Source: Spirochaetia bacterium (GTDB lineage: Bacteria > Spirochaetota > Spirochaetia > UBA9216). Taken from it: a stretch of 64,000 nt of DNA. The notes beneath the pieces are model-generated. The model was not told the origin of the DNA and made no database searches. It saw only the letters and a program-made list of their open reading frames with translations. Both the position numbers and the translations under genes were made by a program. This document shows, in pieces, positions 14,413-19,857 of the stretch (its first letter is position 1; the number at the start of each line of letters is the position of its first letter). The stretch is taken from NCBI GenBank assembly GCA_963677925.2, contig CAXXYH010000004.1:1664001-1728000 (forward strand), read 5' to 3'.

Positions 14413-15558
14413 CTACTCGAGTCTCCCAGCGGGATTCCGGGCCCAGGATTCGATCACTGTTTCTATACCGCTTGCCAGAATTTCCTCTTCGGTGCCTGAG
14501 AACAGAGGGTCGATGAAAACCATCTTTTCCGCGTATTCTCTGCTTTTTCCGGTTTCACCCAGATTATAATAAAGCAGGGAAATTGCCTGACAGGCCCTGT
14601 CGTAGACTTCCGGGGTCTGGTAGCGCATTATTATCATTGTCAGTTCGGCAATGGCAAGGGGAGTGTCACCGGTAATAATGTGGATTTTTGCTGTCCTGTA
14701 GATAGAATCGGCGTAGAACTTTGAGTCTTTGTGGAAACTGATAATTTCACTGTAAAGACTAAGCGCTTCTTCCAGGCTTCCTCCTGCAAGAGCATCACCT
14801 GCCTGCTGAAAAATAAGTTCTGCATCGGCTTCGGTGCTTCCCGGCTGAAATTCGGCTATTTCATAATGTTTAAGATAATCGCTTCTATCAATCAGCAGGG
14901 CAATTTCGGTAGCTCCCAGCAGCAGTGTTGTGCTTTCCAGAGCTGTAAGGTACAGCGGCTGGGGCCATCTTATCCGCCTGCTCTCATACCAGTCTATCCC
15001 GAAGGCTGCTGCTGTAACTCCGAATGATATTGGAATCAGGGTGGATATTGCGGTTAACAGTTTTTCTTTGGGATAAAAAGGGGTGATAATTACATCGCGG
15101 CCTTCGCGTGATATCCTGTACCCGCTTTCAGGAATTAACAGATTATTACCGAGAATTCTGTCTTCATCGGCCCTGAGGATTATATTATCCTCGGAGACAA
15201 ATGATGAAGGTATCACCTTTGAATTCAGGTCGGCAAAGAAACTGCTGTTTTTGTCTGTAAGTTCAATATTTTCTATGTAAGGCTGATAATTATCGCTGAT
15301 TATTTTTATTTCATGGCTTCCGGGACTGAGTCCCCTGAGTAGTACCGGTGTTGCCTGGGCCTGTGGAGCTCCATCGATAAATACGGCAGCATTTATAGGG
15401 CTGCTCCCGATGAAGAGATTAACCTGCTCATCCTGAGCGTATACAGACTGAAAGACTGCTGTTAAAAGGATTGAGGCAAATAACAGTTTTCGGTGAATAC
15501 GTGAACAGGAAAAAGCCATAGTGAATAATAATATCAGATCAGGCATAATTGCAAGCAT
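14413..15558 (-). CDS. PEGA-domain and TPR-containing membrane protein
   Basis: IGSSPINAAVFIDG...TPVLLRGLSPGSHEIKI (PEGA); central TM pair; C-terminal TPR-like helices. Start codon uncertain. Confidence 0.8.
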   Translation of the reverse strand: MLAIMPDLILLFTMAFSCSRIHRKLLFASILLTAVFQSVYAQDEQVNLFIGSSPINAAVFIDGAPQAQATPVLLRGLSPGSHEIKIISDNYQPYIENIELTDKNSSFFADLNSKVIPSSFVSEDNIILRADEDRILGNNLLIPESGYRISREGRDVIITPFYPKEKLLTAISTLIPISFGVTAAAFGIDWYESRRIRWPQPLYLTALESTTLLLGATEIALLIDRSDYLKHYEIAEFQPGSTEADAELIFQQAGDALAGGSLEEALSLYSEIISFHKDSKFYADSIYRTAKIHIITGDTPLAIAELTMIIMRYQTPEVYDRACQAISLLYYNLGETGKSREYAEKMVFIDPLFSGTEEEILASGIETVIESWARNPAGRLE

Positions 15559-15636: not shown

Positions 15637-16704
15637 CTATTTACTTCTGAAAGCTATGGAATGCAGATTGTTGATAGTCTGTGCGGTTGATGATCTGCTT
15701 CCGGCGTCTACATCAAGTATGTTGAAGTAACGTTCTGTTCCGGAATTGTTATCTATGCCCCAGAAAAATCCGGTCAGAGGGTTGAATTTTCCATGATGAG
15801 CATAAACATGGGTAGTATCTGTTGTTATCTTTTTGACAAATGTTCCAGCACCGGTGGAAGTGTTGATGCTGTATACATCTACAGCATCGAGTGATTCATC
15901 TTCCTGTTCCGGGTTAATCAGATATAGATTGCCGCTGCTGTCAAAATCCATACCATGTGTCCATGTTGAAACTCCGGATGATTCAAATTCTGTTATTTCG
16001 GCGGTTGACGGGTTTACGGTAACCAGTACATCTGTATTTTCACTCCAGGCGTAAAGTGTTCCTGAGGAGCTGAATGCCGGATTAAGAAAACCGGCTTCTA
16101 CAATTCCGGAAGAGCCTATTTCCGTTACGGCTGCTGTGGATGTATTTATTTCAACTAGTCCGGAAGAGAGTGTTGTATCATTAGTTGATGTAGTTCCATA
16201 CAGTTTTCCGTTATCATTATCATACACCAGACCGTTAAGGTAGTAGCCGGTATCACCAATTTCGGCAAGCTGTTCGCCTGTTTCTGAATCAATTTCATAA
16301 AGGATGCTTGTTCCCAGGCTGCTGTTTCCTTTGCTGGCTCCATATAAAATGGGCAGTACCGTAACGCTCGCCGATGCAGAGAAAGAATCGTCAGTAGTTG
16401 ATACTGTTATTTCAGCGGTTCCTGCACCAACCGCTGTTGCGGTTCCGTCATCGCTGATGGTAACGATGCTTTCATCAGAAGTGGCCCATATGAGGCTTAT
16501 CTCTGAAGCTGCCTCAGGCTCAACTGTTGCTGCGAGCTGAGCTGTAGATGTAAGTTTAACTGTCAGCTCAGTATCATTCAGTGACAGGTTTGTTACTGTT
16601 ATACCGCTGTTTGCTGTAGTGATTCCGTCACAGCTGTAAAATGCGAATACAGTAATGGCAAGTACTATCAGAAAAGCTTTAAGTTTAAATTTTTTTTGTT
16701 TCAT
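15637..16704 (-). CDS. Lipoprotein with Big_2 Ig-like domain and beta-propeller-like repeats
   Basis: Lipobox FYSC; QLAATVEPE...WATSDESIVTISDDGTATAVGAGTAEITV (Big_2); repeated LY(G/A)...L..I(D/N)..T blades. Confidence 0.8.
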   Translation of the reverse strand: MKQKKFKLKAFLIVLAITVFAFYSCDGITTANSGITVTNLSLNDTELTVKLTSTAQLAATVEPEAASEISLIWATSDESIVTISDDGTATAVGAGTAEITVSTTDDSFSASASVTVLPILYGASKGNSSLGTSILYEIDSETGEQLAEIGDTGYYLNGLVYDNDNGKLYGTTSTNDTTLSSGLVEINTSTAAVTEIGSSGIVEAGFLNPAFSSSGTLYAWSENTDVLVTVNPSTAEITEFESSGVSTWTHGMDFDSSGNLYLINPEQEDESLDAVDVYSINTSTGAGTFVKKITTDTTHVYAHHGKFNPLTGFFWGIDNNSGTERYFNILDVDAGSRSSTAQTINNLHSIAFRSK

Positions 16705-16735
16705 ATAATAATCCTTATAAAATTAAATCCTGACA

Positions 16736-16764
16736 AATTTACTCAGGTTAAAAGCGATTGTCAA
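16736..16764 (-). promoter_or_regulatory. sigma70-type promoter of the Ig-like lipoprotein gene
   Basis: Minus strand TTGACA-17 nt-TAAATT. Confidence 0.7.
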
Positions 16765-16831
16765 TTTTATTAGTTCGGTTTCGCAGAAAATCTATGATTT
16801 TGTGCCGGGATAATAATCGCAGAATATCTCA

Positions 16832-16858
16832 GGGATGATATTTGCAGAATATCATCCC
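16832..16858. promoter_or_regulatory. Perfect 11-bp inverted repeat abutting the -35 box
   Basis: GGGATGATATT-TGCAG-AATATCATCCC. Confidence 0.5.
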
Positions 16859-16860
16859 CC

Positions 16861-16889
16861 TTGACATAAACACTGACTGACGGTACATT
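16861..16889 (+). promoter_or_regulatory. sigma70-type promoter of the Ala-leader/aminotransferase transcript
   Basis: TTGACA (16861-66)-17 nt-TACATT (16884-89). The predicted +1 falls at about 16896, the A of the leader ATG. Confidence 0.85.
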
Positions 16890-16895
16890 TTCAAT

Positions 16896-16973
16896 ATGTT
16901 GGAATCAATCTTAAACAAGAAATTATCCGCCGCGGCCGCAGCTACTTTGACTGCGGTGTTGAACTGGTTCTGA
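16896..16973 (+). CDS. Putative alanine-rich attenuator leader peptide (25 aa, MLESILNKKLSAAAAATLTAVLNWF)
   Basis: Leaderless ATG at the predicted +1; GCC GCG GCC GCA GCT at 16929-16943; followed by alternative hairpins and a terminator upstream of an AlaA-like gene. Confidence 0.8.
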   Translation: MLESILNKKLSAAAAATLTAVLNWF

Positions 16974-17032
16974 CATATTTCGCCGCAGTCTTTTAAAAAA
17001 GGCTCGCGGTCCGGTTAATATTGAAGCTGACG

Positions 17033-17065
17033 GCAGAGTCTTTTTACAGACTCTGCTTTTTTTTT
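17033..17065 (+). terminator. Attenuator terminator in the 5' leader of the aminotransferase
   Basis: GCAGAGTCT-TTTTAC-AGACTCTGC-T9, lying between the promoter and the 17104 start codon. Confidence 0.9.
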
Positions 17066-17103
17066 GCAGAGGCGATTACAAAATCCGGTGGAGTGGAGTT
17101 GAA

Positions 17104-18405
17104 ATGAGAAGAGCGATAGTACATGAAGGTGCAAGGCAGCTGACTTATGAGATCAGGCAGATCGTATCGGTTGCCAACGAGATTAAGGAGCTCGGCAGGG
17201 AAATAAGCTGGGAGAACATCGGAGATCCGGTTGAAAAGGGAAACAACATCGAACCCTGGATGAAAGAGATTATTTCAAATCTGACGGCTTCAGACGCCAG
17301 TTACGGTTATACAGACAGTCAGGGGAATCTGCAGACAAGGAAATTTCTGGCCGGTGAATGCAACGCAATCGGCGGAGCACATATCAGCCATGACGATGTA
17401 ATTTTTTTCAACGGTCTTGGAGATGCTGTTGCAAAGATTTTCGGATTTCTGAAACGGGAGGCAAGGGTAATTGGTCCATCTCCCGCCTACTCAACACACT
17501 CATCAGCCGAAGCCGCCCATTCAGGCTATGAGCATCTGACATACAAACTCGACCCTGATAACAACTGGCTGCCCGATATCGAGGATTTGAGGAACAAGGT
17601 AAAATACAATGACTCAATTGCCGGAATCCTGCTTATTAATCCCGATAACCCCACGGGTATTGTATATTCAAGGGAACTTCTAAGTGAAATAGTACAGATA
17701 GCTGCAGATTACAATCTGTTTATTATTGCCGATGAAACCTACAGCAGGGTTGTTTTTCCAGATGTAGATTTCAGCTATATATGCGAGGTTATCGGGAATG
17801 TACCTGCTGTTTCGATGAAAAGCGTAAGCAAGGAATACCCCTGGCCGGGAGCAAGATGCGGCTGGATCGAAGTGTATAACCGCAAAAAAGACCCGGAATT
17901 TGATACATATATCTCAAGTCTTATAAACGCCAAGCGTCTGGAGGTCTGCTCAACAACTCTGCCTCAGCTTTCAATCCCGCTGATTATGGGAGATCCGAGG
18001 TATCCTGAACACATCCGTACCCAGTCTGAAATGCTGGCTTCAAGAGCCGAGGAAGCCTATATCAATATGAAGGATATTACGGGCATTCAGGTTCTTAAAC
18101 CACAGGGGGCTCTCTATTTTACAGTCCTTTTTAAAGATGGTGTTTTGAATGACGGGCAGTTTCTTGAGATTTCTGAACCTGGTATCAAAAACTATGTTGA
18201 AGAGAAGGTTAAAGGCCTTGAACTTGATAAACGTTTTGTTTACTACCTTCTCGGTGCTGCAGGTATATGTGTAGTCCCGCTTACAGGATTCTGCTCGCAA
18301 CTCAAGGGGTTCAGATTCACACTGCTTGAAGCTGATGATCAGAAACGAAGGAACATTTATAAAACACTTGGTGAATCAATACAGGCCTATCTAGGAAGTA
18401 ACTGA
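17104..18405 (+). CDS. alaA: PLP-dependent class I/II aminotransferase, alanine aminotransferase (AlaA-like)
   Basis: N-terminal YEIR...NIGDP resembles E. coli AlaA and archaeal AlaAT (YDIR/YAIR...NIG[ND]P); INPDNPTG, DETY, SVSKEYPWPGARCGW (PLP Lys). Confidence 0.75.
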   Translation: MRRAIVHEGARQLTYEIRQIVSVANEIKELGREISWENIGDPVEKGNNIEPWMKEIISNLTASDASYGYTDSQGNLQTRKFLAGECNAIGGAHISHDDVIFFNGLGDAVAKIFGFLKREARVIGPSPAYSTHSSAEAAHSGYEHLTYKLDPDNNWLPDIEDLRNKVKYNDSIAGILLINPDNPTGIVYSRELLSEIVQIAADYNLFIIADETYSRVVFPDVDFSYICEVIGNVPAVSMKSVSKEYPWPGARCGWIEVYNRKKDPEFDTYISSLINAKRLEVCSTTLPQLSIPLIMGDPRYPEHIRTQSEMLASRAEEAYINMKDITGIQVLKPQGALYFTVLFKDGVLNDGQFLEISEPGIKNYVEEKVKGLELDKRFVYYLLGAAGICVVPLTGFCSQLKGFRFTLLEADDQKRRNIYKTLGESIQAYLGSN

Positions 18406-18433: not shown

Positions 18434-18462
18434 TTGAAAACAGGGCATAAAAACCTTAGTAT
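18434..18462 (+). promoter_or_regulatory. Probable pfk promoter
   Basis: TTGAAA-17 nt-TAGTAT. Confidence 0.55.
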
Positions 18463-18537: not shown

Positions 18538-19857
18538 ATGGCGAAGAAATATAATTTCAGTATTCCGAAGCTTGGCGAAGCCAAGATTAAGTCACCGATA
18601 CAGATGTCAAAGACATATGGCGACAGAATAGTCAATTATATAAGGGATGAGGAATGTATCCTCTACGACGTTGAAGTTGAAAAGGGTGAAGTACTGCCGG
18701 AATGCGACTCAAATTTCTGTCTGGAGAAATCCGGACCTCATGAACTGCTCTATTTCAACCCAGGTCATGTGCATGCCGGTGTTGTCACCTGCGGAGGACT
18801 ATGCCCGGGGCTTAATAATGTTATAAGGGCGATAGTACGGACTCTCTGGTACCAGTACGGCGTAAGACGCATCACCGGAATACGAAACGGTTACAGGGGA
18901 TTTCTTCCTGAGTATAATCTGCCGATAGTTGAGCTTAATCCTGATGTTGTTGACGATATCCATAATATGGGCGGGACCATGCTCGGTTCCTCCCGGGGCG
19001 GCGGTGAGATCGAAGAGGTCGTGGATGCTATTGAAAGGCTGAACATGAATATGCTTTTCACCATCGGCGGTGACGGCACAACCAAGGGTGCCATAGCCAT
19101 AAGCAATGAAATAGAAAAACGCGGTCTCAAGGTTGCCATCATCGGTATTCCAAAGACTATAGATAATGATTTGAGTTTTATTCAGCGTTCTTTCGGGTTT
19201 GAGACTGCGGTATCAAAGGCTGTTGAGTCGGTTGCTGCTGCCCATGTTGAAGCCAAGGACGCCTTTAACGGGATAGGCCTTGTGAAGCTGATGGGGCGTG
19301 AAAGCGGTTTTATCGCTGCCCACACGGCACTTGCAATGAGCGTGGTAAACTTTGTGCTCATCCCGGAAATTCCCTTTGACCTGCATGGTCCCAACGGTTT
19401 TCTGGAGCATCTGAAAAAGAGGATCAATGAGAAGCACCGGGCAGTAATTATTGTTGCCGAGGGTGCCGGCCAGGATATGCTGGAGGATCTGAAGCAGACT
19501 GATGATTCAGGCAATAAGACTCTTGGAAATATCGGCCGTTTTCTGAAAGAGCAGATAGCCGAATACTTTGATGAAGAAGGGCTTGAGGTGAATATCAAGT
19601 ACATCGATCCCAGTTATCTTATCAGAAGCACAGCTGCAGATGCCAATGATTCAATTTACTGTCTCAGGCTGGGTACTCACGCCGTTCATGCGGCTATGGC
19701 CGGAAAGACAAAGGCTCTTATCAGCATGGTCAATGACCGTTTTGTCCTTGTTCCGATGGAGCTTGCCGTTTCAAAGCGCAACTTTGTAGATCCCGAAGGC
19801 AGTTTATGGAGAGATGTTCTTCAGACAACAAGAATGCCGCTGACAATGAAAAACTGA
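18538..19857 (+). CDS. pfkA: ATP-dependent 6-phosphofructokinase (group X type)
   Basis: VTCGGLCPGLN, GGTMLGSSRG, GGDG (Gly indicates ATP), PKTIDND, KLMGRESG, YIDPSY. Confidence 0.93.
   Translation: MAKKYNFSIPKLGEAKIKSPIQMSKTYGDRIVNYIRDEECILYDVEVEKGEVLPECDSNFCLEKSGPHELLYFNPGHVHAGVVTCGGLCPGLNNVIRAIVRTLWYQYGVRRITGIRNGYRGFLPEYNLPIVELNPDVVDDIHNMGGTMLGSSRGGGEIEEVVDAIERLNMNMLFTIGGDGTTKGAIAISNEIEKRGLKVAIIGIPKTIDNDLSFIQRSFGFETAVSKAVESVAAAHVEAKDAFNGIGLVKLMGRESGFIAAHTALAMSVVNFVLIPEIPFDLHGPNGFLEHLKKRINEKHRAVIIVAEGAGQDMLEDLKQTDDSGNKTLGNIGRFLKEQIAEYFDEEGLEVNIKYIDPSYLIRSTAADANDSIYCLRLGTHAVHAAMAGKTKALISMVNDRFVLVPMELAVSKRNFVDPEGSLWRDVLQTTRMPLTMKN

Follow-up and report, generated by a model that had tools for sequence, protein, structure and literature searches.

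We examined a 64,000-nucleotide stretch of the genome of a Spirochaetia bacterium (assembly GCA_963677925.2, contig CAXXYH010000004.1, positions 1,664,001 to 1,728,000), hereafter called the window, and within it the leader region that precedes a gene for a pyridoxal phosphate (PLP)-dependent aminotransferase. An earlier sequence-only reading had proposed that this region is an attenuator governed by a short, alanine-rich open reading frame (ORF). The features on which that proposal rests are the following.

16861-16889, plus strand: sigma-70-type promoter TTGACA-17-TACATT, 10/12 matches (-35 hexamer at 16861-16866, -10 hexamer at 16884-16889)
16896-16973, plus strand: 25-codon leader ORF, translated as MLESILNKKLSAAAAATLTAVLNWF and followed by a stop codon
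16929-16943, plus strand: five consecutive Ala codons, GCC GCG GCC GCA GCT, the proposed sensor (segment 1, or A)
17032-17065, plus strand: intrinsic terminator (segments 5 and 6, or E:F), GGCAGAGTCT-TTTTAC-AGACTCTGCT followed by a T run
17104-18405, plus strand: 433-residue PLP-dependent class I/II aminotransferase (NCBIfam PRK06855, 657 bits against a cut-off of 443)

The promoter, the ATG at 16896, the 25-codon ORF and its run of five Ala codons, with one more Ala codon elsewhere in the ORF, were all found where they had been placed. The ATG lies 6 nucleotides (nt) past the end of the -10 hexamer TACATT, and this spacing predicts a leaderless transcript that starts at or beside 16896. The terminator announced ahead of the aminotransferase start was likewise recovered, with a stem at 17032-17057 of 10 pairs (5 of them G-C) closed by a loop of 6, and a T run reaching 17065; it forms a perfect 9-nt inverted repeat. 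Since the upstream neighbour gene (15637-16704) is encoded on the opposite strand, this terminator belongs to a 5' leader instead of marking a gene end. Counts of promoter-like sites (9, versus 6.3 +/- 2.4 in shuffled sequences) and terminator-like sites (3, versus 3.0 +/- 1.8) in the region were not above chance. The leader RNA 16896-17075 folded at -62.6 kcal/mol, versus -46.2 +/- 4.3 kcal/mol for shuffled sequences (z -3.8), and none of 200 shuffles folded as well. The recurrence of the arrangement as a whole ahead of orthologous genes, in 50 of 65 genomes of the class, likewise goes beyond chance.

Nowhere else in its genome does an Ala-run short ORF take this shape: of 82 candidates, 6 lay outside longer frames and 1 had the architecture. 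The other Ala-run short ORFs that were inspected were set aside as lying within genes or lacking attenuator architecture. Outside the window, a series of 8 GCN triplets (MKAAAAAAAADPAAV) at G000 C3:429663 lies inside a longer frame, probably that of a membrane protein, and is not a second attenuator.

Conservation of the leader in Spirochaetia

Orthologous loci were collected in two rounds. In the first set of 41 related genomes, 16 had an orthologue of the aminotransferase at 58-95% identity, and for 15 of these the 5' end was present; at all 15 loci a short ORF with 4-7 Ala codons in a row lies upstream. A class-wide sample, in which an orthologue at E <= 1e-120 was found in 67 of 401 genomes, added 50 further upstream regions, 35 of which had a short ORF with a run of at least 4 Ala codons. 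The sequence-only reading had proposed a search for Ala-run ORFs ahead of orthologous aminotransferase genes, and among Spirochaetia as a whole 50 of the 65 orthologues with a readable 5' end have one, with 4-8 consecutive Ala codons.

As an outgroup control we took 80 named orthologous loci, one genome per species, and looked for GCN runs of at least 4 within 350 nt upstream (2 of the 80 had under 90 nt of upstream sequence). Such a run was present in 9/13 Spirochaetaceae/Treponema-type loci, in 0/7 Leptospira orthologues and in 2/60 loci from other phyla (Desulfobacterota, Planctomycetota, Hydrogenedentota, Gemmatimonadota and others), and both of the latter fall at the ends of longer open frames and are chance runs. 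An Ala run that is common in Spirochaetia and missing from these Leptospira orthologues and nearly all other-phylum loci argues that the element belongs to the lineage, not to the gene family. A metagenome scan with a pattern made of the Ala run plus segment 2 (defined below) returned at least 119 stretches, but those loci that were read all lacked the downstream segment 3, and the pattern was rejected as too permissive.

A terminator past the ORF was called by script in 50 of the 54 loci having the ORF, and 3 of the 4 others showed a hairpin with a shorter T run on inspection. The idea of a leaderless Ala-codon leader that chooses between an antiterminator and a terminator thus draws support from the conservation, across Spirochaetia, of the ORF, of the promoter-ATG geometry described next and of the terminator.

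Evidence for translation of the leader ORF

Because the loci had been picked by their GCN run, GC content at codon positions 1 and 2 carries no proof of translation, and we turned to other signs. When promoters scoring at least 8/12 over the -35 and -10 hexamers were placed 4-8 nt before an ATG, the promoter-adjacent ATG shared the frame of the Ala run in 42 of 50 loci, and no locus had it in either of the other two frames. In 41 of 48 loci the -10 hexamer of a TTGAC(A/C)/-10 promoter ends 5-7 nt before the ATG; this leaves no room for a Shine-Dalgarno sequence, so a leaderless mRNA is predicted. The first stop codon past the Ala run comes after a median of 21 nt in frame versus 74.5 and 78.5 nt in the other frames, and in nearly all loci the run itself begins 10-16 codons from the start of the ORF. 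The runs draw on all four Ala codons (GCC 93, GCA 81, GCG 80, GCT 23), and outside the run the leader peptide shows no conservation between clades. Four signs that are independent of locus picking point to translation of the short ORF.

These same observations bear on the possibility that the leader acts as a structured RNA without being translated, for instance as a riboswitch or by binding a protein or tRNA, and that the GCN repeats are only one strand of a GC-rich helix and the ORF is incidental. The Ala run is indeed palindrome-like, it is paired to other segments in the fold of lowest energy, and codon choice within it is partly set by pairing. An incidental ORF, however, would not be expected to have its promoter-adjacent ATG so consistently in frame with the run, nor an in-frame stop codon that comes early, at the antiterminator strand. 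Moreover, a cmscan of 16600-17300 against the 4227 families of Rfam gave no match at gathering score, only two chance-level snoRNA-type matches (E 1.3 and 7.2) far under it, and no ligand-pocket-like core is common to the clades. We regard an untranslated RNA as quite improbable.

In the window, the 5' end of the predicted leaderless mRNA (16893-16907), which contains the AUG, shows 80% complementarity over 15 nt to 16965-16979, where the leader ORF ends around its stop codon; this pairing could affect initiation on untranslated RNA.

The proposed four-segment switch of most Spirochaetia

In most Spirochaetia other than the window's group the leader has a simpler form of four segments. Across the leaders, a segment that follows the Ala run can pair with the 5' arm of the terminator. 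Over 49 loci (one locus was dropped for lack of spacing) this pairing averaged -17.1 kcal/mol, with a median z of -3.2 relative to shuffles. Outside the window's family the antiterminator segment begins no more than 11 nt from the Ala run in 38/41 loci, and in 28/41 its end falls close to that of the stop codon, from 7 nt before it to 3 nt past it. The conserved peptide tails, which read EDRG, GIAG or GAAV directly before the stop, or LTAV, coincide with the RNA that pairs to the terminator arm. Since the antiterminator segment adjoins the Ala run and the stop codon, these tails are best understood as the antiterminator strand read as codons. In this four-segment form, whose last leader codons would serve as the antiterminator strand, a ribosome at the stop codon would cover that strand, and one stalled on the first Ala codons would leave it free.

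The coincidence of tails and pairing also speaks to a further alternative, that the product of the short ORF is a small hydrophobic protein with a function of its own and that the terminator only ends the transcript of the ORF. In favour of this, the peptide is hydrophobic and, at 25 residues, long enough to cross a membrane. Yet it differs completely between clades except for the Ala run, the conserved tails (EDRG, GIAG, LTAV) match RNA pairing to the terminator arm, and the ORF is always upstream of the same gene. A small-protein function for the ORF is, in our estimation, extremely improbable.

Support for the two hairpins was also sought within a clade of 12 sequences, in line with the sequence-only reading, which had looked to covarying hairpins. 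In the terminator, pairing is kept in 95.8% of cells, and 3 pairs vary on both sides. For the antiterminator, 93.1% of cells pair versus 34-51% in slid registers; its covariation is taken up with the other difficulties below.

The proposed six-segment relay of the window's group

The 8 loci of the window's genus and its sister genus have an additional hairpin inserted relative to the four-segment form, giving six segments that we label both by number and, for comparison with the Salmonella his leader, by letter. All are on the plus strand.

16928-16943: segment 1 (A), the Ala run, which can pair with segment 2 or segment 4
16949-16958: segment 2 (B), GACTGCGGTG, spanning the last codons of a conserved (I/L)TA(V/A) tail
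16981-16990: segment 3 (C), CGCCGCAGTC, which pairs with segment 2 or 4
16994-17009: segment 4 (D), AAAAAAGGCTCGCGG, with its core AAAAAGGCTCGC at 16996-17007, the antiterminator strand
17033-17045: segment 5 (E), GCAGAGTCTTTTT, the terminator 5' arm, with segment 6 (F) as the 3' arm

The energies of the five overlapping hairpins in the window were as follows.

Hairpin 1:2: -12.5 kcal/mol
Hairpin 2:3: -18.3 kcal/mol
Hairpin 3:4: -14.6 kcal/mol
Hairpin 4:5: -20.5 kcal/mol
Hairpin 5:6 (terminator): -15.1 kcal/mol

Segments 2 to 5 lay exactly where the sequence-only reading had put them, and the pairings that it claimed (2:3, 3:4, 4:5, 5:6 and the Ala run with segment 2), which are these five hairpins, can all form in 8/8 loci of the group. 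Segment 2 starts 5 nt past the Ala run in each of the 8. Segment 4 has three possible partners, namely segment 3, the Ala run and the terminator 5' arm, and the 1:4 pairing is present in the minimum-energy fold of the window leader. Because a MAFFT alignment of the 8 relay-type leaders misaligned segment 3, the segments were located by motif instead. Pair 9 of helix 2:3 varies among the 8 loci as C-G, U-A and U-G, and in two of the loci the 3:4 loop contains a small self-complementary insertion, with no disruption of the stem. Segment 4 changes in step with the terminator from one genus to the other: in the window's genus an A-run before segment 4 faces a U-run in the terminator arm and loop, and in the sister genus GACTCGC of segment 4 faces GCGGGTC of the terminator.

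The two forms do not divide strictly by family. One locus of the window's own family, from a third genus (L015, genome G005), has the short four-segment form, and in two loci of other families (L009 and L113) the spacer is long and the antiterminator strand lies 42-48 nt beyond the stop codon. Such variation suggests that relay-type insertions arose more than once.

Proposed mechanism and ribosome masking

From these pairings the following sequence of events can be proposed for the window. Transcription would start at or next to the ATG at 16896, giving a leaderless mRNA, and a ribosome would translate the 25-codon leader while RNA polymerase proceeds. When alanine is scarce, the ribosome would stall on the Ala codons at 16929-16943 and cover segment 1, so that segments 2 and 3 pair; segment 4, left free, would capture the terminator 5' arm, no terminator would form and the aminotransferase gene would be transcribed. 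When alanine is plentiful, the ribosome would pass segment 2 and reach the stop codon; segment 4 would be taken up by segment 3 or by the Ala run that the ribosome has left, and the terminator at 17032-17065 would form. If the leader were not translated at all, hairpins 1:2, 3:4 and 5:6 would form and transcription would also end.

We modelled these states by masking, in which a 28-nt ribosome footprint is blocked and the net energy gain of forming the terminator is computed. In the window the terminator gain came to -14.9 kcal/mol both without a ribosome and with one at the stop codon, and to -3.6 kcal/mol when a ribosome occupied the first or second Ala codon. The means over 50 loci were -14.1 kcal/mol with no ribosome, -9.5 at the first Ala codon and -14.5 at the stop codon, and the change ran in the predicted direction in 39 of the 50, although the genomes are related and the Wilcoxon p value is accordingly overstated. 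In co-transcriptional folds the terminator 5' arm was sequestered in 50/50 loci with the ribosome at the first Ala codon and in 25/50 with the ribosome at the stop codon. By computation, then, antiterminator and terminator are mutually exclusive in the window: their hairpins overlap, and a ribosome mask on the Ala codons alters the terminator gain.

Taken as a whole, these results indicate that an attenuator at this locus is very probably genuine, conserved and functional. On the evidence of sequence comparison and modelled folding, we judge it highly likely that the element is a ribosome-mediated (leader-peptide) transcription attenuator that gauges charged tRNA-Ala, and most likely the aminotransferase gene is turned up when alanine runs short. 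The mechanism, including the start site, stalling on the Ala codons, read-through in vivo and an alanine-forming enzyme, is what we infer from sequence and folding. A search of sequencing runs for the stretch returned one run that contains it and none recorded as RNA.

Observations that weigh against the proposal

Several results pull the other way, and the first of them concern folding. The sequence-only reading had pointed to folding with masked segments as a means of mimicking ribosome positions; an Ala-codon footprint did cut the terminator gain, but full-length minimum-energy folds kept the terminator in every masked state in 5 of 6 loci, the window included. The sixth, L003, lost it in all four masked states, that with the ribosome at the stop codon among them. 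With the terminator retained in nearly all full-length folds, any antitermination must be kinetic, as is likewise true of the trp attenuator. In the co-transcriptional fold of the window the terminator 5' arm was sequestered (8/10 nt) in every state, also with the ribosome at the stop codon, so that for this locus the fold does not discriminate.

The antiterminator pairing is also less distinctive than the terminator. Its covariation within the 12-sequence clade is weak, with 1 pair changed on both sides and a score that 112 of 500 shuffles reach. Cognate terminator arms paired at -17.1 kcal/mol versus -14.0 kcal/mol for foreign arms and ranked in the best quarter in 25/49 loci, a moderate result, and the window itself failed this comparison since the GC-rich arms found in other clades can pair to nearly every CGCGG-rich leader. 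The bare 4:5 duplex of the window, at -9.9 kcal/mol (z -0.8), was no better than shuffles.

Conservation has its gaps as well. A run of at least 4 Ala codons is missing in 15 of the 65 orthologues, and because the genomes are related, locus counts overstate independent support. Among the 15, L121 and L122 have AAAGA, the low-GC loci L111, L114 and L115 have scattered Ala codons, L130 and L140 have the aminotransferase gene directly after another gene, and the remainder show nothing. In the low-GC Spirochaetia (~31-35% GC; L114, L115/L051 and L111) the promoter, a 22-25-codon ORF and the terminator are kept, and the Ala runs are broken (SAKAS in L114, SASAKA in L115/L051, SAEAT in L111).

The last group of such results concerns the enzyme. 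The alanine aminotransferase model PRK08363 scores 157.3 bits on the protein, below its cut-off of 534; the NCBIfam name of PRK06855 is generic ("pyridoxal phosphate-dependent aminotransferase"); and the genome holds a second paralogue resembling alanine aminotransferase, of 406 residues, which is nearer to the PRK08363 model.

The aminotransferase downstream of the leader

The motifs YxIR...NIGDP reported for the downstream protein were verified as YEIRQI...WENIGDP in the ORF at 17104-18405. Its nearest solved structures are E. coli AlaA (4cvq, E 3.3e-42) and then 1xi9 (E 6.6e-36), deposited under the title "putative transaminase", which we take to be the alanine aminotransferase of Pyrococcus. 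Inspection of the region upstream of the 406-residue paralogue revealed no leader. The leader ahead of the gene at 17104-18405 strengthens, without proving, the suggestion that its product makes alanine.

Our literature search, made without subscription journals or supplementary files, found nothing relevant on PRK06855, no publication on a direct alanine attenuator and none on leader-peptide attenuation in spirochaetes. The matches that it did return for "alanine leader peptide" and for Spirochaetales leader genes proved to be unrelated.

Relation to known leader systems

The classical attenuators known to us answer to Trp, His, Leu, Thr, Ile/Val or Phe. The trp attenuator operates through the leader peptide trpL and a choice among 1:2, 2:3 and 3:4 pairings. 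The short Spirochaetia form resembles the E. coli trpL region in having sensor codons, an antiterminator strand at the stop codon, and terminator 5' and 3' arms; it differs in the amino acid, the predicted leaderless start, the host group and the single-gene target.

The sequence-only reading had likened the window to the trp/his/thr/leu/ilv/phe logic in general. That likeness can be narrowed, in that the window's layout is specifically that of the six segments of the Salmonella his leader, in which hairpins A:B, C:D and E:F (terminator) are alternatives to B:C and D:E (read-through) (PMC4046918). The window hairpins 1:2, 2:3, 3:4, 4:5 and 5:6 correspond one-to-one to the A-F scheme, and both leaders (hisL; Rfam His_leader) have a short ORF with a run of one amino acid's codons, 7 His there and 5 Ala here. 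Unlike the his leader, which senses histidine and controls a pathway operon, the window's element would sense alanine and control a single aminotransferase gene, in Spirochaetia. Its predicted transcript is also leaderless and would leave no space for a Shine-Dalgarno sequence, and none of the Rfam leader families matches it by sequence or covariance model.

Leaderless short ORFs with a one-codon run have a precedent in mycobacteria, where polycysteine short ORFs are described as amino-acid-responsive attenuators of downstream genes (10.1101/834739). They share the leaderless start and the codon run with the window but use Cys codons and belong to Actinobacteria.

The sequence-only reading had also been aware of no characterised Ala-sensing leader peptide. 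This stands insofar as no direct alanine attenuator was found, but an Ala-rich leader is in print: the mycobacterial whiB7 upstream ORF (uORF), called an "Ala leader" by its authors, has 25-40% Ala and causes antitermination on stalling, and WhiB7 raises the alanine aminotransferase aspC (PMC10274678). The likeness lies in the Ala-rich ORF, the passage from stalling to antitermination and an alanine aminotransferase as output. The whiB7 route is indirect, from uORF to WhiB7 to aspC, whereas in the window the Ala run stands directly before the aminotransferase gene, and the whiB7 uORF is longer, of mixed composition and responsive to many amino acids and antibiotics, whereas the window has a tight Ala run. 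The gene downstream in the window encodes an aminotransferase and not a WhiB-family regulator.

The whiB7 case raises the question of whether the Spirochaetia leaders might be translation-coupled attenuators that report general translation capacity or some other stress (amino-acid starvation, ribosome-targeting compounds) and not alanine. Anything that slowed the ribosome near the start of the ORF would act on this architecture; the whiB7 uORF, which was initially interpreted in this way, responds to a shortage of many amino acids (PMC10274678), and some low-GC relatives have only scattered Ala codons (L114 and L115, above). Against this, the one coding feature that crosses clades is an unbroken series of 4-8 Ala codons just before the antiterminator strand, the regulated gene is always an AlaA-like aminotransferase, and no other codon class is enriched. 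We therefore consider a general sensor unlikely and retain a gauge of charged tRNA-Ala as the preferred reading.

Neighbouring genes and other features

The remaining features near the leader are listed here.

14413-15558, minus strand: divergent gene for a 381-residue protein with a weak BamD/TPR-like match, below every family cut-off
15637-16704, minus strand: divergent gene for a 355-residue protein with a lipoprotein-like signal (AFYSCDG), below every family cut-off
16764-16736, minus strand: promoter-like site TTGACA-17-TAAATT for the divergent genes
16807-16828 and 16832-16853: 22-nt direct repeat, 86% identical
18434-18462: promoter-like site of the phosphofructokinase gene
18538-19857, plus strand: gene for an ATP-dependent 6-phosphofructokinase (PRK06830, 662 bits)

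The phosphofructokinase gene is the next after the aminotransferase gene, from which it is separated by a 132-nt gap. The 22-nt repeat creates a perfect 11-nt inverted repeat, GGGATGATATT / AATATCATCCC (16832-16842 and 16848-16858), two bases upstream of the -35 box of the leader promoter. The closest relative, L002 (95% protein identity), has a single copy of the 22-nt repeat and lacks the inverted repeat; the repeat at 16807-16853 looks like a recent local duplication and not a conserved operator.

Significance

The window's element would add a member to a classical kind of attenuator, in a host group new to that kind, and is marked by its predicted leaderless start and his-like relay. Extending the proposal beyond the window, we think it likely, though with somewhat less confidence than for the element itself, that Spirochaetia possess a class-wide family of leaderless alanine-tRNA gauges. 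This would be the first to act directly on alanine supply and the first leader-peptide attenuator of spirochaetes, and its architecture would be of two types, four segments as in trp or, within the window's family, a six-segment relay as in his, with PRK06855 as the regulated alanine-forming transaminase. A bolder extension would have the ~170-nt terminated leader RNA also act in trans.

If true, a direct gauge of alanine would fill a gap, as the only alanine case that we found in the literature is the indirect whiB7 circuit of mycobacteria, and leader-peptide control would gain a new host group in the spirochaetes. The element is also a compact candidate for an alanine-responsive regulatory part, and the occurrence of four- and six-segment forms among relatives provides a natural series on the rewiring of attenuators. 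For the widespread and generically named PRK06855 family, the regulatory context supplies a testable function, the synthesis of alanine.

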